32,000 nucleotides of DNA from Mycoplasma mobile 163K (GCF_000008365.1 NC_006908.1:540001-572000), one strand, 5' to 3'. Counted from the stretch's first letter, positions 14,792 to 29,701 are shown. Numbers and translations: made by a program. Notes: a model not told the origin generated them from the sequence alone.

Positions 14792-17068
14792 TTATTTATT
14801 AATTCAATGATTAAATTGTTCTTCTGTTGCTAAAACATGATGGTTTTCAGCAACTTCATGTAAAATAGGAGGATTACCTAAACTTTGTTCATTTAAATAA
14901 GTAAGTTCAAAATTTGAAGATTTGAATTTTTCATTTGCATTTGAAATTTTTGGAATTGAATCAAATAAAGAAATAGTATAAGGGTGGATAGGATTTTCAA
15001 AAATCTTTTCTGTTTTTCCTCTTTCTACAATTCTACCATAGTGCATAATGATAATGGAATCTGCAATATATTCAACCATAGATAAATCATGAGCTATAAA
15101 AATTAATCCAATTTTTTTAGTTTTGCACAGGTCTTTTAATAAATTGACAACTTGAGCTTGAATAGAAATATCTAAAGATGCAATTGGCTCATCTGCAATA
15201 ATTACTTTTGGATTTGTAATTAGAGCTCTTGCGATTACAATTCTTTGTCTTTGTCCACCAGAAAATTCATGAGGGTATCTATATGCGAATTGTCTTAATA
15301 ACCCAACATCTTCAAGAGCAGAATAAATAATTTCTTTTGCAAAGATATCTTTTACAAAATATTTTGAAAACAAATTCTCTTTCATTCCAAGTAAATGTTC
15401 TAATTTTTTAATTTCTTTTTTCAAAAGATTTTTTTCAATTTCAAATGATTCTAAAGTGTCTTTTTTTTCAAATAATCTTGTTTTAAAAGATAGAGTTTTT
15501 GTTTTTCAAGAATTAATTGTATGTTTGTTTTTTTCTAGAAAAATTTCTGTTTCAATTCTTTTAAAAAAGTAATTCAATAAATTCTGAAAATATAAATCAA
15601 GAGATTCTTTTTTTAATTTTATTTCATCTTGAATTGATTTTGCCTTTATAAAATCTTCTTTATATTTTGAAATAGTTTTGCTATGTTTTACTAAGTATTC
15701 TGATAATTCTTGATCATTTTTTTCTTTTGTAGATTTTAAATTTAATTTAGCTTTTTCAATATCTTGAACATTATATGTTGGAATTTTTGAAATTGAACCC
15801 ATTTTTTTTCTTAATTCATTAATGTTATCTTTGTACTCTTTTTTCTCGTTTAAAATTGTAATTCTAGTTTGATTTGATTTACTTAATTCTTTCTTATATG
15901 AAAATTCATAACCATTTAAAATTTGTTTTTTATTTACTTTATTTTCGTTTTCAAAAGAATTAAAATATCTTAAGTTGTAATTTTTTTGAAATTCTATTAA
16001 TTTACTTATTTCTTCAATTGTTAAATATTTTAATAAATTTAAATTTTTAGATAAAAGACTAAAAGATTTTTTATATATTAAATATCATTTGTAATTTATT
16101 AAAAAATCCTTTTGATTAAGTGAGATGTTTTTTTGCTGCAAAAATAACTTTAAATTATTTTTAAACTCTTCTAAATAATTTTTTAAGGTATTCTTTCTTC
16201 TAGAAATTTTTTCTCTTTGTTTAAACTTAAAAGATTTCAAATATTTTTTTTGTTCAAAAATTTGCTCTAATAATTTTTCTCTTTCTAAAGAAACTTTAGA
16301 TAATTTAATTACTTTTTTCAAATTTTCAGTTGCCTCAATTAAATCTTTTTCATCTATAAATAAATCATCTTTTCGATATTTTTCCATTCCTTCTAAATAG
16401 GAATTAAAAATTTTCTTTGTTGTTTCAAAATATTTTGTAACAACTTTGGATTCCATATTTTGTTTTGATTCTAAAAATAAAAACATCTCTGAAAAAACTT
16501 CATCAAATTCACTCTCTGAAGTATTTATAAGTTTTAATTTCTTTTCTCATTTTGAAATAAAATCTAATTCTACTTCATTTTCAAAAACAATATTTTCCAA
16601 ACTTGTTTTGTGATAATTTTCAATAAAAGTATATTTGAAAAACTTCTTAACTTGTTCTCAATCAGAAAAAATGTCTTTGTATTTGTTTTTTAAAACTTTG
16701 TTAATTATTAAAGACTCTTTTAAAATTGAATAAACAGTTTTTTGAGAATTCATCGAAGTGTGAGGATCTTGAAAGATCATTTGAATATTTTTGTGTAAAA
16801 ATAAGCGATTTTTCTTGCTTATTTTTTTTCCAGAAATTACATTTCCATCTAAAGAAACAAAACCATTATAATCATCATATAATCTAATTAAAGAACGGCC
16901 TAAAGTTGTTTTTCCAGAGCCGCTTTCTCCAATTAAACCTAAAATTTCTCCTTCTTCTAAATCAAAACTAACATTTTGAACAGCTTTAAGAATACCATTT
17001 TTATTTGCAAAGAATTTTTGCAAATTTATTACCTTTAATAAAATTTCTTGTTCTTCACTTTTATTCAT
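14792..17068 (-). CDS. oppF: oligopeptide ABC transporter ATP-binding protein OppF with ~440-aa internal K/E/L-rich insertion
   Basis: Four track ORFs (16658-17068, 16085-16486, 15506-15802, 14804-15424) are one frame; all three gaps were scanned and contain only sense/TGA codons. Total 758 aa. Walker A GESGSGKTT and Q-loop MIFQDP lie at the N-terminus. YPHEFSGGQRQR, Walker B VIIADEPIASLD and H-loop IAHDL lie about 440 residues later. Confidence 0.9.
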
Positions 17069-19325
17069 TAAAAACCTTCTTAAATAATTTTATTCTTTCT
17101 TGAATTTTTCTATTCATTGGAACTTTTGGAGCATCTGGATGCAATAATCAAGTTGCTGCAGCATGAGTTTTATTAATTCAAAACAATGGTGGTTCTTTTT
17201 CAAAATCTATTTCTAAAGCATGTTCATTTCTAGATGCGAAAGGGTCTCCTGCAGGTAAATTTGCCATGTCAGGTGGTAATCCTTGAATGTTGTAAAGTTT
17301 TTCTTCTTTATTTTCAGGAATTGAGCTAATTAAAGCTCAAGTGTAAGGATGTCTAGGGTCTTCAAAAATCTCTTTTTTAGTTCCTCTTTCTACTATTTTT
17401 CCAGCATACATAACATAGATATAGTCACAAAATTTTGCAACAACACTAATATTATGAGAAATAAAAATAATTGAAATTCCAAATTCTTGTCTAATTTTTT
17501 CAAATAAAACTAATACTGAAGCTTGAACAGTTGGATCTAAAGCAGTTGTGGGCTCATCTGCAATAATTATTTTTGGTTGCCTTGCAACAACCATTGCAAT
17601 AACTACTCTTTGCTTTTGTCCACCGCTCAAAGTATGTGGGTATGAATTGAATTTTTCCTTTGCATTTCTAATTCCAAATGATTCTAGTAAATCAATTGAA
17701 AATTTAATTTTTTCTTCTTTTGATTTAAATCTTGAATCTCTTTCAATACAATCTAGCAATTGTTTTCCAATTGTTCTTGTGGGATTTAAAGAAGTAAGTG
17801 GATCTTGAGGAATATAACCAATGTATTTTCCTCTAATATTATTTCATTGTGAATCTTCTTTTAAAGATAGTAAGTCAATATTTTCTAATTTCATTACATC
17901 TGCATCTACAATTGCTCCGAAATTAATATTAATTAAAGCTTTTGAAGTAACTGATTTTCCGGAACCACTTTCACCAACAAAACCAATAATTTGCCCTCTT
18001 TTAACACTTACATCAACACCTCTAATAATATTAATAACTTTTTTTCTTCCAGTTTTAAAAGAAACTTTTAAATTTTTAACTTTTAAAATTGTCTCTTCTT
18101 GGAAATTTTTAGCATCTGTATTTTGTAGTGTAGAGGCTAAAGATATAGTATTTTTTAAAATATTCTCATTCATTAATTCACTAGGAGTTTTTGAAAGAAT
18201 TTCAATTGCTGGTAAAATTTTTCCTTGAAGATAAGTAGAAACAGCAAGTTTATTTGGAGAAACATGGTTAAATCTCTTTCTCAAATCTTCATTAACAAGT
18301 TTGAAAATATTATATCCATATATCCCAATAAAAGTTTCCTCAGAAGTTTTTGATAAAATTTCTATTAATTTTTGAGTACCTTTTTTAGCGCTAGAATATT
18401 TTGTATTTCCTAATGCTTCAAATCAAAGAACTTTTTTTGCCTTAAATATAATTTCTTCAAATTTTTTTACAGAATCTTCATGTACATCATAAATTTTTTC
18501 TTTGCTTAAAGATAGAAAAATATTATATTTTTCAGGAATGATTAGTTGGTTTTTTCTTGCTACAAGAAATTTTTTTGTAACTTCAACTTCTTTGATAGAA
18601 ATTTCTTTATGATCAATTTTATTTTTATTAACTGAATTAAAAATATAAGCTAATTTTCCACCTAAAATAATTCTGTCAAATTTTTTTAATAAAAAATTTA
18701 ACTCTCTTGCTTTTTCCAAAATAGAATCACCAGATAAAATTGCTAGACTAGGCCTAGTTTTAGGGTTTGTGTCAATAAGTCTTTTTAGAATAAGCAACTC
18801 TTTTTTAACAGATTCTCCAATAAATTTTGATTCTTTAAAAGTAGCAATTCCATAATTGGAAGCTGTTTTCTTAAAAGAAATATCAAAAGCATCATTAACA
18901 AAATCGTCTGCTAAACTTGCTCAATATTTTGATAAATCTAAATTATTATTCGATTCTGCATTATTTTTTGCATCTTCTTTTAAAACATTGTCAACTAATA
19001 AAATTTCTCCATTTTTTAAATCATTAATTAAATTTTCTAAAACTTCTCCACTAGTCTCTACTGAAAATTTTATTTTTAAGTTTAAAACTTTTTCAAGGGA
19101 CTCTTTTAAAAAATTAATTGAAGACATTTTTTCTTCAGAAAGATTATGATGAGTTAACAAAACAATTTTTGCTCCATCTTTTACTAATTTGTTAATTGTT
19201 GGAAGTGAATCTAAAATTTTTTGTTCGAATAAAAATTTATCATTTTTAAAAGGAATATTGTAATCAACACGCACAAAAACAACTCTATTATTAAAATTAT
19301 GATTTCCTATAGTTTGAATTTTCAT
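17067..19325 (-). CDS. oppD: fusion protein: degenerate phosphoglycerate kinase-like domain (aa 1 to ~377) + linker + OppD oligopeptide ABC transporter ATP-binding domain
   Basis: Track ORFs 18921-19325, 18423-18797, 17844-18284 and 17337-17759 share one frame. I translated all junctions (18798-18920, 18285-18422, 17760-17843, 17067-17336) and found no TAA/TAG; 752 codons in total. The N-terminal part aligns along its whole length with the pgk product at 25471-27006. The C-terminal part has GESGSGKS, LSGGQKQR, IIIADEPTTALD, SHNISV and the Opp C-terminal motif. The start is 1 nt after the oppC stop and the stop overlaps the oppF ATG. Confidence 0.85.
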
Positions 19326-19326
19326 T

Positions 19327-20478
19327 TTAAACCTTTCTTAATTGTGGATCGATTGCATCATGTACTCCAAGAGCTACAAATTGCAATGATAATGTTATTG
19401 TTAATAATAGCAATGAAGGCAATAACAAAGTTCAAGGATTGTTTGAAAAATCACCTAAAGCTTGAACTAAAATATTACCTAAATTTAGATTTGCAGGATC
19501 TGTTAAAAATCCTAAAAATGATAATGAAGATACTAAGAAAATAATTACTGGAATTCTTTGTACAAAAGAAATGGCTAATCTTCCAATAATATTAGGAAGT
19601 AAATGCATGAAAATTCTTCTTTTCTTTGAAGCTCCAATTGCTTCTGCTGCTTTAATGAAATCTAAATCTTTAACTAAAATTGCAAATCTTCTTGCTTCTG
19701 CGACTGGAGCAGATCATCCGATAATTACTAAAACTATAATTAATTGGAAAAAATCTGTACCAACAATTGAAACTAAAATTAAAACTCAAATTAAATTAGG
19801 TAAAGAATTAATTACTTCTAAAACTCTTTCAAAAAATGTATCAATTGGCTTTCCAAAATTAAAACCTAAATAAATGCCTAATGAAACACCAACAATTGAA
19901 TTAATTAGAGCAACTAAAACTGCTAAAAGCAATGATTGAATTGTTGCTGATCAACTTCTTGTTCAAATATCAAATCCACTACTTGTTGTTCCTAAAATTG
20001 TGCTAAATTGTTGACCACTATTTGTAAATGATAGCAATTCATATGCATTATAAGTAATTTCTCATTGGTTAAAACCAAGTAGTTTTTCACTAATAATCAA
20101 AGAAGCACCTTCTATATTTATTTGATTTTGAATATCAATAAAAAGTTGTCTTTGCGAATTTGTCAAAATTTGGGTTTTTAATGGATTTGCAATTGGAGGT
20201 AAATTTCCATTAAAAAAATTGCTTTGATTTGTAATAGGTATATCTCCTGCAAAAGGAGAAGTAAATGGAATAATAATTGCCATTAATAAAATAATTAGAA
20301 AAATTGATAATGCAATAACAGAATAAGGATTTGAAAAATACCTTTTGATAATTTCGATAATATTTTTCTTTGGTTTTCCAACTAATTGAAGTAAACTTAC
20401 AGAATTATTTGTACTAAATTTGAATGAATTTGAATCAGTTTTGATATTATATTTTTTATTAAAATCATTTCTATTCAT
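19327..20478 (-). CDS. oppC: oligopeptide ABC transporter permease OppC
   Basis: ORF 20062-20478 extends to TAA 19327-19329 through several TGA codons (the whole 19330-20061 stretch was scanned). Total 383 aa. It has ILGTTSSGFDIW (the LGTDxxGRD-like motif), the EAA-type loop AAEAIGASKKRRIFMHLLPN and multiple TM segments. Confidence 0.9.
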
Positions 20479-21523
20479 TTTGTAAATCCTTTCCCATTTT
20501 TGTAAATTCTGAATTATTTTTTAATTCTCTTTTTCTTGCTTCATATGATTTAATAATTGGATAAATTCCATAAGGATTTTTAGTTGCAAATTTAATTCTT
20601 GGATCTAATAATATAGAAACTATATCAACTAGAATTCTTGAAGCAATTGTTAAAGTAGCAAAGAAAAAAGTACTAAACATTACAATATTAATTTCACCAT
20701 TTGGAAATGCATTTATAAATAAAACACTTGTTCCCGGTACTGCAAAAAATGATTCAACAATTAAAGATCCTGATAATAAGAAAATAAATGAAGGAATAAT
20801 TAAACTCATCAAAGGAATAGAAATATTTTTTAAAACATATTTAAGAAATATTTCATATGATTTTAGACCTTTTGACTTTGCAATTAAAATGTAATTTGAA
20901 GAAAGAACTCTTGTTGTTTCATTTCTGGCATAAGTTACATAAGCTGCCAAAGAACCAAAAACTAAAACTAAAATTGGTAAAACTGTACTTGCTATAACTA
21001 AACCTGAACTAGCACCTTCAGCTGCTGAAGCAAATCTTGTTGGTAAACCGATTAAAAGCCCAAATAAAATGAAAAATGGAGCTAAAATAAATGAAGGAAG
21101 TGCTATAAAAATTCTTGTAAATAAGTTTATTGAAGCATCGATATAAGTTCCTCTTCTATAACCGGATCATACTCCAAGGGCGATTCCTACAATTACACTT
21201 ATTAAAAAAGCAGGACCTGCAATTGCTAAAGTAAATAACATTGGCCCAAAGAAAATTTCTGGAATTGTTCTTCCTGAAAATTGGGCTCCAAAACCTACTC
21301 TAAAATCCCCTAGAAAAAAACCTCCTAATCATTCTGCTAGTCTTGCTCCAATTGGTCTATTTAAACCAGCAGCAATAAAAGCTTCTTCTGCTTGTTGAGC
21401 ATTTGTTGCTGTTGCAAAAAATGGATTGGCTCCAAAACTACCTATTAATAAATAAGTTAATATAAGAATTACAAATAAAGCTATCGTGCCTAAAAAAATT
21501 CTAATTGATATATATTTAAACAT
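20471..21523 (-). CDS. oppB: oligopeptide ABC transporter permease OppB
   Basis: ORFs 21329-21523 and 20471-20950 are joined in frame (20951-21328 scanned). Total 350 aa. N-terminus MFKYISIRIFLGTIALFVILILTYLL, with the EAA-type loop YILIAKSKGLKSYEIFLKYVLKN. It overlaps the oppC start by 8 nt. Confidence 0.9.
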
Positions 21524-21534
21524 TACTTTCCTTT

Positions 21535-24402
21535 CTAATTAAGATCTAAATTAATTCTAATATCATTTTGATAAAGAACTCCTCTAACAAAAACTGGTAG
21601 AGAAAATCTTGGTTGAACTAAAACATTTGTTAAATTTCCTGAAGAAACAGTAGATTGATTTCCGGTTCTACTCATTTCTAAAGAATTACCTTTAATGGTA
21701 TTGAATTCTCTTGCCAAAGCAATTAAATCTCTATTTGTTTTTCTATTTTGGTATCCAATTCAAAATTTAGCAAATGCTTCACTTATATTTGAAAAAATAG
21801 GTGATCCATCAGGATTTGTTCCAATTTGTACTCTTAAACTTTCTTCTAAATGATTTAATTGATTATTTGTTAAAGCATCTCATTGATCAAATGGTATAGC
21901 AACTCTAAATTCAGGATTGGTTGTTCCATTACCAACTATTTCTTTAAAAGCTAATGAAACTTTGTAAAACTCTGGAAATGTTCTAACTAATTGATGATTT
22001 GGATCAAGCTTTGAATAATAAGAAAAAGCTTGAACTATACCTGTGGCATTTCCGTGAGTTGTTCCATCAAAAGCTGTCCCAATTCCATTGTAATCATAAC
22101 CTCATCCTGAAAATTGTGTTGAACTAAAGCCTCCTGTAATTCTTGCTAAAATATTTGGAACAGTGCTTGGAACATAAAAACTTACATTTAGTCTTGAATC
22201 AAGAGCATTAATTGTATTTACAACTTCATTATAAGCGCTAGTTACTGCATTACTTGGAGTTCCAATAAAAGTGTAAGATAAGTTTCAATCAATTGTTCTA
22301 TTAGTATTAGGATGTAAAGCATAAAATTCATCTAATAAAGTTTTCATTTCTAATGCTGCTTTTTCAAAAACTAAACTTTTAAATTGATTTGTTAAATTAG
22401 ATAAATTTTGCAAAAAGACATGATAGTCCTTTAGTGAATTTGTACTATCCAAGACTTCAAAATTACTATTTAAAAGAAATAATTCATTAACAACAGTTTC
22501 TATATTTGCTACTACATTTTCAATGCTAAAAATTCTATTACCATTTGCATCTCTTTTAGCAATTACATCTTGAACTGTAAAAGTATTATTTGTTCCATCT
22601 AAAGTTGTATTACCTGTTCTCAAAGTTGAATGAGAACTTGAATTTTGATCAATGCCTCCAATGAAAGCATCAGGAGCGAAAGTATTTATTCATGGCGAAG
22701 CTTCCTGAGCTGAAACAGTCGAAGCATAAGAATATCAATTGATTGCACTTTGTAAAATTGATCTAAATCTTTGTCCAAAACCTCCAAAGTAAGCTTCAGT
22801 AGTTGCAACATTACCTGTATTTAATGATGCTAAATCATGTCCATAATTCAAAAGTGCATAAGCATTATTGAAATTGTATTTTGAATTGCCATTTGCATCA
22901 ATTCCGCCACCGCTAGGAGCACTAACTGGAACAGTTCTTAATAATAATTGGTTATTAACAAGTTGAGTAGTTCTTCTTGCAATTTGTGAAACTTGTTGTT
23001 GTTGAGCATTTGATAGAAAATTATATCCTAATATATCAATATCTTTATTTCTAAAACTATTAAATGATTGTTGAATAAAAACATCTTGGTTGATTGAAGG
23101 AATATATCTTTCAATCTGCTCACTTATTAAAGTATTATCATCAACAAAATTTCTATTTGAATCTAAAAATTCAACATAATTTCTATTTTGTCTATAAATT
23201 AACCTACCTGCAGCAGGATCAATTGTAGTAGGAATGTAAGGACTTGCAAAAAGTGTTGTAGTTGAACGATATTCACGATTTGCAACTGAAGTCAATCCAT
23301 TTAAAGGACCTGAAGGAATTGATTCAAAACCATAATCATAAATTTGAAATTCTTTTGCAAGACCTGAAATATTTGTTGGATTAGTTTCAAAAGGCAATGA
23401 AGATTGTTTTTGGCTCATTTCTTGAATGAATTGTGAAGGAGCAGCCGAAAGAGTTAAGTCATTGTTCAATAATTTGCTAAAAGTATCATAAAAATTTGCT
23501 CCAATTTGCTCTGAAGTAGCATTTAAAGTAAAATATTTTTCACCATTTATTGTTGTAATTGTTTTTGTTCTATCTAAAATATCTTGAGATGAAACATTAA
23601 AAATTCCAAACAAATATGCATTAGAATATCTATCTGTATCACCAAATCTAGTGCTTACACCTATAGTTCTTAAAGCATCATCAATTTCTTTAGAACCTCC
23701 ATTTGCCCTTCTAAAAGAAGCTGTTAATAAATTTGTTCTCATAAAAGAGTAATAAAAATCCTCTGGAACAATTTCGTATTTAGTAGCATTTCCATTAACA
23801 TCTGTTCATTTTAAACCTTGTTTTATACCAATTTGCAATTTTATTGCTTTTGGTGCTAAAGGATCAATTGGATTTAAAGCAGTCACAAATTCGGGTGAAT
23901 TAATCGATCTTAGATCTTGTGAAGTTTGGAAAAATACTGCACTGTTGTTTTTTGCAAAATCTTCAGGAGATGGTTGATCAACATTATCATTATCAAATTC
24001 TCTTGTAGCTCCATTTGCATAAGTAACAATAATTTTTGATCCATAAATCATTTTATATCTAACTAATGTTGGAATTTCAACAGCTCCTGTAGAATTATTA
24101 AATACTGGTGAATTTAATGTTTCAAGTCTAAACATGCCAGCACTTGTATTACTTGTAATAATTGAATTTAAACCTCCAAAAGAAGCACTATAATCATAAT
24201 TGTAATTTGGTGTGGGTAAAGAACTATTGAATTCTTGAATGTATTGTCTTTTTCTCGATAAAGATAATTCATTAGCATTTGTAAAACCTTCAATAGAACT
24301 TGTTCTATTTTGATTAATTACTGCAGCAGCTACAACACCTCCTACTATTCCAACAAGAATTGTTGAACCAATTGAAAATTTAATAAATTTTTTTAAAACC
24401 AT
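21535..24402 (-). CDS. oppA: large OppA-like substrate-binding surface protein (955 aa) with uncleaved-type N-terminal anchor
   Basis: Track ORFs 23806-24402, 22735-23742, 22285-22623 and 21535-21717 are in one frame, and all gaps were scanned. It is the first gene of the oppBCDF cluster, with RBS aaggaa before the ATG. The N-terminus KFSIGSTILVGIVGGVVAAAVI is hydrophobic but contains no Cys. GLKWTDVNGNATKYEIVPEDFYYSF resembles the family-5 SBP W-x-D-G-x-x-T-x-x-D-F motif. The remainder is highly diverged. Confidence 0.7.
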
Positions 24403-24440
24403 TTTTTTCCTTTTTTATTCTAAATTTTAATTTATAAAAA

Positions 24441-24468
24441 ATATGAGAATACATTTTGCTTCTCATAT
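24441..24468 (-). terminator. hairpin plus T-run 33 nt upstream of the oppA start (terminator or attenuator)
   Basis: The minus strand reads ATATGAGAA-gcaaaatgta-TTCTCATAT followed by TTTTTAT: a 9-bp stem with a 10-nt loop. It lies between a 30-codon mini-ORF (24511-24603) and the oppA RBS. Confidence 0.35.
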
Positions 24469-24721
24469 CTTACGCTTTATTTAAAATTAATAACTTTTTA
24501 ATTTTTTAATTTAAAAATTCAAAACATAAGATACTTTGATAACTTTATTATCAAAAGATTTATTAATATTTTGTTCATAAGTACTTAATTTAAAGTTAGT
24601 CATTATATTAAAACCTTTCTGTATCTCTTTGTTGAATTTTTTAATTCAATTTTATTATAGTGTAAAAAAATAAAATTTTTTAAATATGATTTAATTTTTT
24701 CAAATAATTTAAAATTTTAAT

Positions 24722-25429
24722 GTGGAAAAAATAAGAATTCAAAAATTAATATCACAAGCCGGAATTTCGAGCAGAAGGGCAGCTGAAGATTTAATCTTAA
24801 AAAAGAGAGTAAAAATTAATGGAGTAATTGCTAAAATTGGAGATAAAGCTTCTTTAGAAGATGTGATTTTAGTTGATGAAAAGGTTATTTCTAAAGAAGA
24901 AAAAGTTTATTATTTATTAAATAAACCTAAAAATGTTGTCACTACTTTAAAAGATAATTTTAACAGATCCATAATAACTGATTTTATTGATGAAAAAAAA
25001 TATAAAATATTTCCTGTTGGAAGATTAGATTATGATACAACAGGAATTATTATTTTGACTAATGATGGAGAAACTGCAAATAAGCTTTTGCATCCTAAAT
25101 ATGAAATACCTCGAATTTACGAAGTAATTATTGATAAAGAACTTAGTTTAGAAGAAATAAAATACTTAAATTCCCAAGAAGTTTTTTTAAATAGTAAAAA
25201 AAGTTTTCAAGAAGTATCAAAAATAAGTAATTATAAATACAAAATAAAATTACACCAAGGTTCATATCACCATATAAAAAAATTGTTTGAAATTGTAGGA
25301 AAAAAAGTAAAGGATTTGAATCGAACTGAATATGCTTTTTTTAACTTAGAAAATTTATCAATAGGTAATTATAGAAAACTAAATAAACATGAAATAGATA
25401 GACTTTTGAATTTTGTTAAAAATAAATAA
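24722..25429 (+). CDS. RsuA/RluB-family ribosomal pseudouridine synthase (S4 domain + catalytic domain)
   Basis: 235-aa ORF with a GTG start. It has an S4 RNA-binding N-terminus (IRIQKLISQAGISSRRAAEDLILKKRVKING) and the catalytic motif VGRLDYDTTGIIILTNDGE. Confidence 0.9.
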   Translation: MEKIRIQKLISQAGISSRRAAEDLILKKRVKINGVIAKIGDKASLEDVILVDEKVISKEEKVYYLLNKPKNVVTTLKDNFNRSIITDFIDEKKYKIFPVGRLDYDTTGIIILTNDGETANKLLHPKYEIPRIYEVIIDKELSLEEIKYLNSQEVFLNSKKSFQEVSKISNYKYKIKLHQGSYHHIKKLFEIVGKKVKDLNRTEYAFFNLENLSIGNYRKLNKHEIDRLLNFVKNK

Positions 25430-25455
25430 AAATGAAAAGATACCTTTTCATTTTT
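25428..25455. terminator. bidirectional rho-independent terminator between the pseudouridine synthase gene and pgk
   Basis: aaaaatgaaaag atac cttttcattttt forms a perfect 12-bp stem with a 4-nt loop and flanking T/A runs. It sits between the convergent stops at 25429 and 25471. Confidence 0.7.
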
Positions 25456-25470
25456 ATTTATTTTAATTTT

Positions 25471-27006
25471 TTAAAATTTAATATCATCATTTGGTAAAGA
25501 ATCTAATTCTTCATCTTCAATATCAAATTCATCATCATTTTCATTTAAAATAATTTCTTCTGTTTTAACTTCATTTGGAAAAGAAGCTTCTCTTGTTGGA
25601 AAATCGTTTGTATTAAGCAAAAAATCTTCATCATTTTCAACTTCATTTGAAAAATAAGTTTGTGAATTTGAATCATTATATTCTGATGGAAACTCTTCAT
25701 TAGCTGGCTCAACTTCACTTGTAGAAAAAGCTGCTGTGTGTTCATGTAATACTTCTTCTGAATTCTGAGTTAGAATTGAAAAAATTTCTTCTTTTGTACG
25801 TCCTAGCTCACCTTCATTTTGAATTGCTTGAATTCCTGGTAATTCTTTACCTTCTAGAAATTCTAATGTTGCTCCTCCACCTGTTGAAACGTGACTAAAT
25901 CTTCTATCTAATCCAAGTTCTTCAATAATAGCAACACTATCACCACCACCTACAACAGTATAAACATTTCCTTTTAATTCTGTGATTGCCTTTGCAATAG
26001 CTTTTGTTCCTTCTTTAAAGTATTTAAATTCAGTAACACCTAAAGGTCCATTTCAAAGAATTGTTTTTGCATCTTTTATATATTTTTTAAATACTTCAAT
26101 TGATTTAGGACCAATGTCTAATCCCATATATCCATTTGGAATTTCTAAAGTATTTTCAAGATTATAAAATGGCTTTACATCTTCAAAATCTTTTGCTAAA
26201 GCATAATCAATAGGTAAAACAAATTTATCTAAATTATTTTTAAGATATTCTCTCGCTAAATCAATTTTGTCTTCCTCGACTAAAGACTTCCCAATCCCGA
26301 TTCCTTGTGCCGCTAAAAAAGTATAAGCCATAGCTCCACCAATAATTATTTTATCAACGTATTTTAAAAGATTATTTAAAACTCCAATTTTATCTGAAAC
26401 TTTTGCTCCACCTAAAATAGCAACAATTGGTCTTTCTGGCCTAGATAAAGCTTTGTCAAGATTTTTAATTTCTTTTTCAACTAAATATCCAATTCCTGAT
26501 TCAGCAATGTATGTTGAAATTCCGACATTTGAAGCATGTTTTCTATGCACTGTTCCAAAAGCATCATTAATAAAAACATCTCCTAAAGAAGCTCAATACA
26601 TTCCTAAATCTGGATTGTTTGATGATTCAGCATCATTATTTAAATCCTCAAAACGAGTATTTTCCATCATAACAATTTCGCCTGATTTCATGCTATTAAT
26701 TGTTTCTTCAAGTTCTGTTCCATTAGTAGCTGGGACAAAAGTGATAGGCATTCCTAATAAATTTACTAATATTTCTACAACAGGTGCAAGAGATTTTTTC
26801 TTAAGATCTTCTTCAGATTTTACTCTTCCTAAATGTGACATAAGAATGGCCTTACCACCTTCATTAACAACTTTTTTAATTGTAGGAATTACTGCTTCTA
26901 TTCTTTTATTTGATGTAACAATACCATTTACGATTGGAACATTAAAATCTACTCTGATGATAACTTTTTTGTTTTTTAAACTAATTTGATCTAGTGTTTT
27001 TTTCAT
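25471..27006 (-). CDS. pgk: phosphoglycerate kinase with ~116-aa acidic C-terminal extension
   Basis: ORFs 26593-27006 and 26053-26550 plus 25471-26052 are one frame (25474-26052 was scanned triplet by triplet). Total 511 aa. All PGK hallmarks are present: [61 protein letters not shown] and [18 protein letters not shown]. The core ends near 25822, followed by the tail [12 protein letters not shown]...[60 protein letters not shown]. Confidence 0.95.
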
Positions 27007-29612: not shown

Positions 29613-29701
29613 GGAGTAGTACTCAAGAGGCTGAAGAGGTGTCACTGCTAACGACATAGGGGGTAATACCCGCGAAGGTTCAAATCCTTTCTACTCCGCC
29701 A
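29613..29701 (+). tRNA. tRNA-Ser (anticodon GCU), class II with long variable arm, CCA encoded
   Basis: GGAGTAG...CTACTCC acceptor stem plus G-CCA. Anticodon loop is CTGCTAA, flanked by TGTCA/CGACA (one A-C mismatch at 31-39). There is a long variable arm TAGGGGGTAATACCCGCG and a T arm GAAGGTTCAAATCCTTT. It closely resembles Firmicute tRNA-Ser(GCU). Confidence 0.93.

Follow-up and report, generated by a model that had tools for sequence, protein, structure and literature searches.

Why should the ATPase of a peptide importer begin with the entire length of a glycolytic enzyme? The question is raised by MMOB4490 of Mycoplasma mobile 163K, a minus-strand gene in the 32,000-nucleotide stretch of DNA analysed here (GCF_000008365.1 NC_006908.1:540001-572000), which as a whole we call the window and whose positions we count from its first letter. 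Our analysis confirms that MMOB4490, within the opp operon, truly joins a full-length phosphoglycerate kinase (PGK)-fold module in frame to OppD. Constraint on the module is strongly relaxed, and only its C-lobe is weakly constrained both in M. mobile and in an uncultured relative that carries the orthologous fusion. The explanation that we favour, with a probability of roughly 0.55, is that the module persists as a pseudoenzyme appendage that is tolerated and in slow decay.

The reading frame and its product

MMOB4490 (17061-19325, minus strand; AAT27935.1, WP_011264969.1, Q6KHJ5) is a single open reading frame (ORF) of 754 codons that runs from the ATG at 19325 to the TAA at 17063-17061, without an earlier TAA or TAG in frame, when TGA is read as tryptophan (code 4). 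This reading fits a Mollicute window with a G+C content of 24%, in whose genes 50 of the 55 Trp codons are TGA. An earlier note, made from the sequence alone, had recognised that the long frame stays open under this code and is interrupted by TGA alone; its end at 17067 and its count of 752 codons fall two codons short, and the six in-frame TGA codons divide the gene into seven standard-code fragments rather than the four that it gave. Within the PGK-like part, the coding frame holds no TAA or TAG, whereas the two alternative frames hold 30 and 34, which places the open frame far beyond chance and argues that it has been maintained and is not accidental. A sequencing or assembly error that joined two genes, which the earlier note had named as a risk, deserves next to no weight, because Logan independently assembled the same 2265-nt gene, with a continuous frame and no differences, from a different read set (SRR29904084), and four additional samples contain the orthologous fusion in intact form.

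The two halves are readily identified. Pfam PF00162 (PGK) matches residues 8-369 over positions 3-379 of its 379-position profile (E 8.9e-68, 229 bits against a cut-off of 27), and BLASTP aligns the module with the resident PGK, MMOB4530 (27006-25471), at 33% identity over 395 residues (E 1e-61). The homology to PGK that the earlier note had assigned to residues 1 to ~377 is therefore well founded, and the profile search that it had proposed returned a full-length match well above the cut-off. A linker of about 34 residues (379-412; 18090-18191), which is predicted at low confidence to be helical and is rich in insertions and deletions between the orthologues, leads into the OppD ATPase proper (residues 413-754; 17064-18089), much as the earlier note had it with an ordinary OppD domain after some 35 residues. 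This half contains PF00005 ABC_tran at residues 435-594 (17544-18023) and PF08352 oligo_HPY at residues 645-704 (17214-17393). Its motifs are all intact (Walker A GESGSGKS, Q-loop IPQDP, signature LSGGQ, Walker B IIIADEP and H-loop ISHN), and in Foldseek searches its model matches DppD (8z1x_C) and OppD (8z21_C). The best NCBIfam models are likewise OppD ones, yet they score under their cut-offs (NF043079, 348 against 740; NF007010, 259 against 575), so that the name OppD rests on the domains and the operon context. Motifs, evolutionary constraint and operon context together show the OppD assignment, and the last ~340 residues probably form a working ATPase that would power the OppBC peptide importer together with OppF.

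An exact database look-up identifies the 754-residue product as AAT27935.1, which GenBank names "bidomainal protein" and which RefSeq and UniProt (Q6KHJ5) name "phosphoglycerate kinase", a misleading name for a dead module fused to OppD. Public annotation of the locus is inconsistent, since RefSeq also holds a second model, WP_225968666.1, of 370 residues, which comprises OppD alone and starts at Met385 (internal ATG at 18171-18173). This second model, together with the fact that ordinary Mollicute OppD proteins are 350-425 residues long, raises the alternative that two products exist, with OppD initiated at Met385 and the PGK-like region left as a pseudogene remnant or made as a separate ~43-kDa protein. 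We regard this as distinctly unlikely. No stop codon separates the halves, and no Shine-Dalgarno-like motif was found upstream of Met385, in contrast to the AAGG/AGGA motif that stands 5-12 nt upstream of all six real starts nearby (oppA, oppB, oppC, the fusion, oppF and pgk). The linker of the orthologue contains no ATG, GTG or TTG; a scan for internal promoters, with matches no commoner than in shuffled sequence (83 against 86.8), is uninformative. In both species the PGK-like frame has no stops, against 26-34 in the other frames, which is unlike a dispensable, untranslated remnant. The RefSeq start at Met385 is thus without support, and with no support for any internal start the best-supported product is one polypeptide: MMOB4490 is probably translated as a single chain of 754 residues and roughly 86 kDa.

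Active site and fold of the PGK-like module

The module divides into an N-lobe (residues 1-175; 18801-19325), which corresponds to the 3-phosphoglycerate (3-PG)-binding domain of PGK and is recognised by Pfam on its own (E 6.5e-39), and a C-lobe (residues 176-378; 18192-18800), which corresponds to the nucleotide-binding domain. Its residues were mapped by aligning it with eight real PGKs. The 3-PG site depends on a basic patch made up of Arg38, His62, Arg65, Arg122 and Arg170 in human PGK1 numbering; in the M. mobile module R38 is replaced by K, R65 is lost, R122 is replaced by L and R170 by K, leaving only the histidine, and in the orthologous module the whole patch is lost. The phosphate and nucleotide loops of the C-lobe have gone as well, the motifs of nucleotide binding and phosphoryl transfer being changed from GGAKVSDK to SGDSILEK, from WNGP to WFEA, from GGGDS to YGYNI and from STGGGA to SPNKLA, with the single-residue losses Lys215 to Ser, Asn336 to Phe and Glu343 to Lys. 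The RVDxNxP strand, the histidine of SHLGR and the equivalent of K219 are retained in M. mobile, and the orthologue has lost nearly all PGK motifs, RVDFN included. Of 89 columns that are invariant in the eight real PGKs, the M. mobile module keeps 54 and the orthologue 29, and the Pfam score of the orthologous module is 89 bits against 229. Every motif loss listed by the earlier note was reproduced in this alignment. The module is a pseudoenzyme by ancestry and by catalytic loss, with a clear PF00162 match and its functional residues replaced. With the 3-PG patch, the catalytic lysine and the loops for nucleotide and phosphate all gone, the residue pattern suggests that it can have no kinase activity and that binding of 3-PG, ATP or ADP is very unlikely.

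The overall fold appears to have survived these losses in M. mobile. In the AlphaFold2 model, the predicted local distance difference test (pLDDT) is mostly above 90 over residues 1-380, and a weak helix (residues 381-399) separates the PGK-like module from a standard nucleotide-binding domain (NBD). Foldseek matches the module to whole PGK chains at template modelling (TM) scores of 0.81-0.86, normalised to the target, in the kind of comparison that the earlier note had proposed; the many real PGKs in the alignments behind these models favour such a fold.

A preserved two-lobe fold invites the proposal, also made in the earlier note, that the module is a ligand sensor which binds 3-PG, ATP or ADP and tunes OppD to the glycolytic or adenylate state of the cell. 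The hinge-bending architecture is predicted to be present in M. mobile, where a few ligand-site residues remain, namely the Asp and Asn in RVDYNIP, the SHLGR histidine and the counterpart of K219. However, the basic patch has kept one of its five residues, substitutions have also removed the catalytic lysine, Asn336, Glu343 and the two glycine-rich phosphate loops, and the replacements differ between the orthologues, the relative having lost RVDFN as well, so that no ligand site is conserved. Moreover, the N-lobe, which would hold the 3-PG site, is the least constrained part of the protein. The differing losses of ligand residues and the relaxed constraint contradict a sensory role, and we consider it very improbable.

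Distribution, origin and evolution of the fusion

The orthologous fusion was found in four samples of one uncultured relative, where it is syntenic, intact and 710-712 residues long (SRR26596556, locus L001; SRR26596559, L083; SRR26596586, L085; SRR26596589, L084). L001 and L085 show the order oppB-oppC-fusion-oppF, followed by the same 136-aa ORF and helix-turn-helix gene as in the window, and L083 and L084 are shorter contigs that span part of the shared gene order; the order of the upstream block oppA-oppB-oppC (19327-24402, minus strand) is kept in L001, L083 and L085. A word-indexed search of 5.8 billion proteins with the full-length query gave 2,730 significant matches, and among the best 120 of these the only other two-domain protein was the cluster of L001. 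Searches with each PGK-like half alone found no fusion beyond that cluster, and the module of the orthologue as query gave only weak matches to normal PGKs and no third lineage. None of the 17 nearest Mollicute opp loci among the GTDB species representatives has a fusion, their OppD proteins being of the ordinary 350-425 residues. A profile scan of 1.84 billion representative sequences likewise returned no PGK-OppD fusion among its best 150 matches; the ten long proteins checked among them were real PGKs with disordered tails, PGK-PGK tandems, GAPDH-PGK and PGK-iPGM. These last comprised PGK-PGK proteins of 795 and 797 residues, a GAPDH-PGK of 763 and a PGK-iPGM of 883 (P0249, P0258, P0387 and P0355), the PGK parts of which score highly and look catalytic. 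The representative library lists neither known fusion, as a shorter OppD-only sequence can stand for a cluster (this was seen at the 90% level), and a third fusion is possibly hidden behind such representatives. In the collections searched, and to the depths given above, the fusion was met with in two species. The survey of Mollicutes that the earlier note had suggested thus places the extension in just one other species.

In the tree, all 500 bootstraps group the two modules as sisters, which indicates that the fusion arose once, before M. mobile and its relative split; the C-lobe deletion of about 15 residues relative to MMOB4530, common to both, and the syntenic loci further support a single origin. 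Where the module came from is less clear-cut. Its derivation from the resident pgk by a local duplication is plausible, since that gene lies only ~1 kb upstream of oppA. On the other hand, the tree places the modules with MMOB4530 in only 13% of bootstraps, and a test of shared derived residues gives the module no special affinity to MMOB4530 (13%, mid-range of 6-17%). Comparison of scores against PGKs gave a tie for the M. mobile module and a score to MMOB4530 for the relative's module that is 20 bits better than to any other PGK tested. The earlier note had argued for duplication of the resident gene within the lineage, and its argument is weakened here. The motif similarity on which it drew is real but is not specific to the resident PGK, the motifs being general to Mycoplasma PGKs. 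The two Trp residues encoded by TGA in both proteins, which it had also adduced, were rejected as evidence of origin; they are uninformative, because TGA is the usual Trp codon here and both Trp positions are conserved across PGKs.

The two halves have evolved very differently since the split. Between the orthologues, the OppD half is 84% identical in amino acids, with a ratio of nonsynonymous to synonymous divergence (dN/dS, Nei-Gojobori (NG)) of 0.11 (95% confidence interval (CI) 0.07-0.16), as against 33% and 0.68 for the PGK-like half. Within the latter, the N-lobe (27%) reaches a dN/dS of 0.94 (95% CI 0.58-1.36) and the C-lobe (38%) 0.54 (0.34-0.79), the core of the C-lobe at residues 186-232 being 57% identical with a dN/dS of 0.30 (0.10-0.77). 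These between-species ratios are upper bounds, since synonymous sites have reached a plateau (pS ~0.55, third-position G+C ~0.10), and we reject their use as proof of neutrality because of this saturation. Polymorphism among the four samples of the relative, which is free of synonymous saturation, shows 10 nonsynonymous to 4 synonymous differences in the PGK-like half and linker, and 0 to 4 in the OppD half (Fisher p 0.023). The module is also the most diverged segment of the locus, the neighbouring proteins being 59-78% identical and the insertion in OppF 46%.

The decay is uneven in a further respect. Relative-rate counts of unique changes give 4 in the N-lobe of M. mobile against 26 in that of the relative (p 6e-5), the changes being losses of ancestral PGK residues; rates are symmetric elsewhere, with 8 against 6 unique changes in the C-lobes and 13 against 14 in the OppD halves. 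In composition, a real PGK has a fraction of 0.35 of the residues FYMINK and 0.22 of GARP, the M. mobile N-lobe 0.42 and 0.10, the M. mobile C-lobe 0.41 and 0.14, and the relative's N-lobe 0.57 and 0.03. The relative's N-lobe has a second-position G+C of 0.13 and a model of lower confidence, and Pfam searched with this lobe alone no longer recognises PGK.

A tolerated, slowly decaying appendage would account for this pattern as follows. A pgk of the Mollicute type would have been copied, and the copy joined in frame to the front of oppD, before the lineages of M. mobile and its relative separated, with translation starting at the ATG at 19325 behind its Shine-Dalgarno-like motif. After the fusion, the N-lobe would have drifted almost neutrally on the whole, at a much higher rate in the relative, whose N-lobe is turning into AT-driven low-complexity sequence like that of the N-terminal extensions of other Mycoplasma OppD proteins, and the C-lobe would have been kept under a weak and similar constraint in both species. 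Any residual value of the module may be that of a folded, soluble N-terminal cap; a partner-binding role of the C-lobe is possible. The only supported start of OppD and its tight packing against oppC lie upstream of the module, and this would hold the frame open and by itself accounts for the absence of stops and frameshifts. Unrelated N-terminal extensions of low complexity occur on other Mycoplasma OppD proteins, and the OppF proteins of Mollicutes have insertions of ~400 residues, which argues that appendages are tolerated in the group. Among the closest non-fusion OppD proteins, unrelated K/E/N-rich N-terminal extensions of low complexity, of ~190 residues (P0003; L002 10001-11611) and ~85 residues (P0002), were observed, so that N-terminal appendages recur on OppD in the group. 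Two other Mollicute loci with unusual OppD frames were noted, either of which may be real or may reflect an assembly or frameshift error: a Metamycoplasmataceae metagenome-assembled genome (MAG) has OppD-like and OppF-like parts in one 1047-aa ORF (L014 116-3259), and in [Mycoplasma] cavipharyngis OppD is split into ORFs of 174 and 186 residues (L016 5875-7127).

Several observations weigh against a module that is simply decaying. As upper bounds, the dN/dS values may understate the true constraint, and that of the C-lobe is significantly below 1. A C-lobe stretch of 11 residues, ELNFLLKKFDR, is unchanged between the two species. The counts of polymorphisms are low, and 10:4 is not significantly different either from neutrality or from moderate constraint. 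Many structural PGK motifs persist in the N-lobe of M. mobile, which has diverged much less than that of the relative, and this may reflect real constraint. Finally, the module has been retained as ~350-380 codons in both species despite the saturation of synonymous sites and despite the bias towards deletion that is generally ascribed to Mollicute genomes.

These same observations bear on the idea that the C-lobe is a docking surface which tethers the Opp ATPase to a PGK-binding partner. The dimeric F1-like "twin motor" of the M. mobile gliding machinery includes a PGK, and this is the resident MMOB4530 (Toyonaga et al. 2021 and 2025; PMC8406192; PMC11864180; PDB 9io5 chain O). The earlier note had mentioned, without naming the gene, a PGK reported as a structural component of an F1-like motor in a gliding mycoplasma; that precedent is correct, and the PGK is encoded in the same organism by a neighbouring gene. 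The C-terminal domain of this real PGK binds the N-terminal domain of the motor beta subunit (PMC11864180), which makes docking an attractive idea. Candidate partners of the dead C-lobe would be that beta-subunit domain, or PGK or other glycolytic enzymes, and docking would place peptide import beside the motor chains or a local source of ATP. Docking would explain why the C-lobe is the sole part of the module constrained in both species (dN/dS 0.54, 0.30 in the core, the 11 identical residues, symmetric rates) and is modelled confidently in both orthologues, and why the module has been kept in frame across a saturated synonymous divergence. The constraint is weak, however, and a need to stay folded and soluble would explain it equally well; five nonsynonymous polymorphisms fall in the C-lobe of the relative, the ~15-residue deletion relative to MMOB4530 lies in this lobe in both orthologues, and MMOB4490 is not named among the motor components in PMC11864180 and PMC8406192. 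We therefore hold docking to a partner in general to be possible but rather unlikely. The specific version, in which the dead C-lobe binds the N-terminal domain of the F1-like beta subunit and links the importer ATPase to the motor chains under the membrane, is a long shot; were it true, PGK-fold modules would be general ATPase adaptors in M. mobile. The evidence leans towards little or no function for the module.

On the reading that we favour, MMOB4490 offers a clean example of domain decay, in which a whole enzyme has been fused to an essential partner and is decaying while its frame is held open. A single protein would then display three states, with OppD strongly constrained, the C-lobe weakly so, and the N-lobe dissolving into AT-driven low complexity, and its decay may show how Mollicute proteins come by their unexplained insertions and N-terminal extensions. 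Its position beside the gene of the sole PGK known as a structural part of a motor also makes it a natural test of PGK-fold modules as ATPase adaptors.

Operon setting and known systems

The fusion takes the place of oppD in the order oppA-oppB-oppC-[fusion]-oppF, in which the genes abut or overlap, all on the minus strand. Upstream lie oppA (24402-21535), oppB (21523-20471) and oppC (20478-19327), the stop of oppC falling 1 nt before the ATG of the fusion, and downstream lies oppF (14792-17068; 758 aa), the start of which overlaps the stop of the fusion by 8 nt (ATGAATAA). The NBD of M. mobile OppF is split by a K/E-rich helical insertion of ~460 residues, which is 46% identical to that of the relative as against 85% for the flanking NBD parts; the OppF proteins of the retrieved Mollicute loci are all similarly long, mostly ~780-910 residues. 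The pgk gene (MMOB4530, AAT27939.1; 25471-27006, minus strand) encodes 511 residues with all catalytic motifs intact (Pfam 483 bits) and ends in an acidic, domain-less tail of 114 residues (25471-25815). Real PGKs with domain-less tails of up to ~350 residues were also among the profile-search matches (P0250, P0262, P0264, P0268 and P0285). The gap of ~1 kb between pgk and oppA (24403-25470) holds no ORF of at least 100 codons. On the minus strand of this gap, a hairpin resembling a terminator follows pgk (25126-25107), and the promoter-like site at 24683-24654 is the best in the region; by these matches, which are to consensus only, pgk and opp would be separate transcription units. Elsewhere in the window, a tRNA-Ser (GCT) at 29613-29701 on the plus strand was the sole match in Rfam and tRNA scans.

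The bare observation of the fusion is not new. Its two-domain nature has been recorded in GenBank as "bidomainal protein" since 2004, and a single sentence of a 2025 paper states that the PGK residues of MMOB4490 are not conserved (PMC11864180), so that the earlier note went too far in knowing of no description. Neither that paper nor PMC8406192 mentions the fusion of MMOB4490 to OppD, and our searches, within the library available, found no further paper on the gene or on its PGK-OppD architecture. What is new is that this architecture is rare and arose once, that the 370-aa model lacks support and that the pattern of decay is lobe-specific.

The closest comparison is with MMOB4530 itself, which is found in the same organism, is encoded 6 kb away, has the PGK fold, is associated with an ATPase and is 33% identical to the module. 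However, MMOB4530 is free-standing, keeps its binding and catalytic residues, ends in the acidic 114-aa tail and binds non-covalently to an F1-like beta subunit, whereas the MMOB4490 module is dead, has the C-lobe deletion of ~15 residues, carries the linker and OppD in place of the acidic tail and is covalently fused to an ABC ATPase.

Extra globular domains on the nucleotide-binding subunits of importers are familiar from the regulatory domain of MalK, the C2 domain of MetN and the CBS domains of OpuAA, all of which are C-terminal, conserved and bind defined ligands or partners. The MMOB4490 module shares with them its attachment to such a subunit and differs in being an N-terminal, fast-evolving pseudoenzyme that has no conserved ligand site and occurs in two species. 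Catalytic PGK fusions (PGK-TIM of the NF010569 type, GAPDH-PGK, PGK-iPGM and PGK-PGK) resemble it in that a full-length PGK is joined in frame to another protein. In those fusions, the partners belong to the same pathway and the PGK parts score 430-930 bits, as active enzymes do; the partner in MMOB4490 is a transporter ATPase, and its PGK part scores 229 bits, or 89 in the relative. The extensions of Mollicute OppD and the insertions of OppF are, like the module, lineage-specific, fast-evolving and AT-driven additions to conserved NBDs, and the N-lobe of the relative is converging on their low-complexity state. The difference is that these appendages have no recognisable domain ancestry, whereas the module of MMOB4490 can be traced to a complete enzyme.

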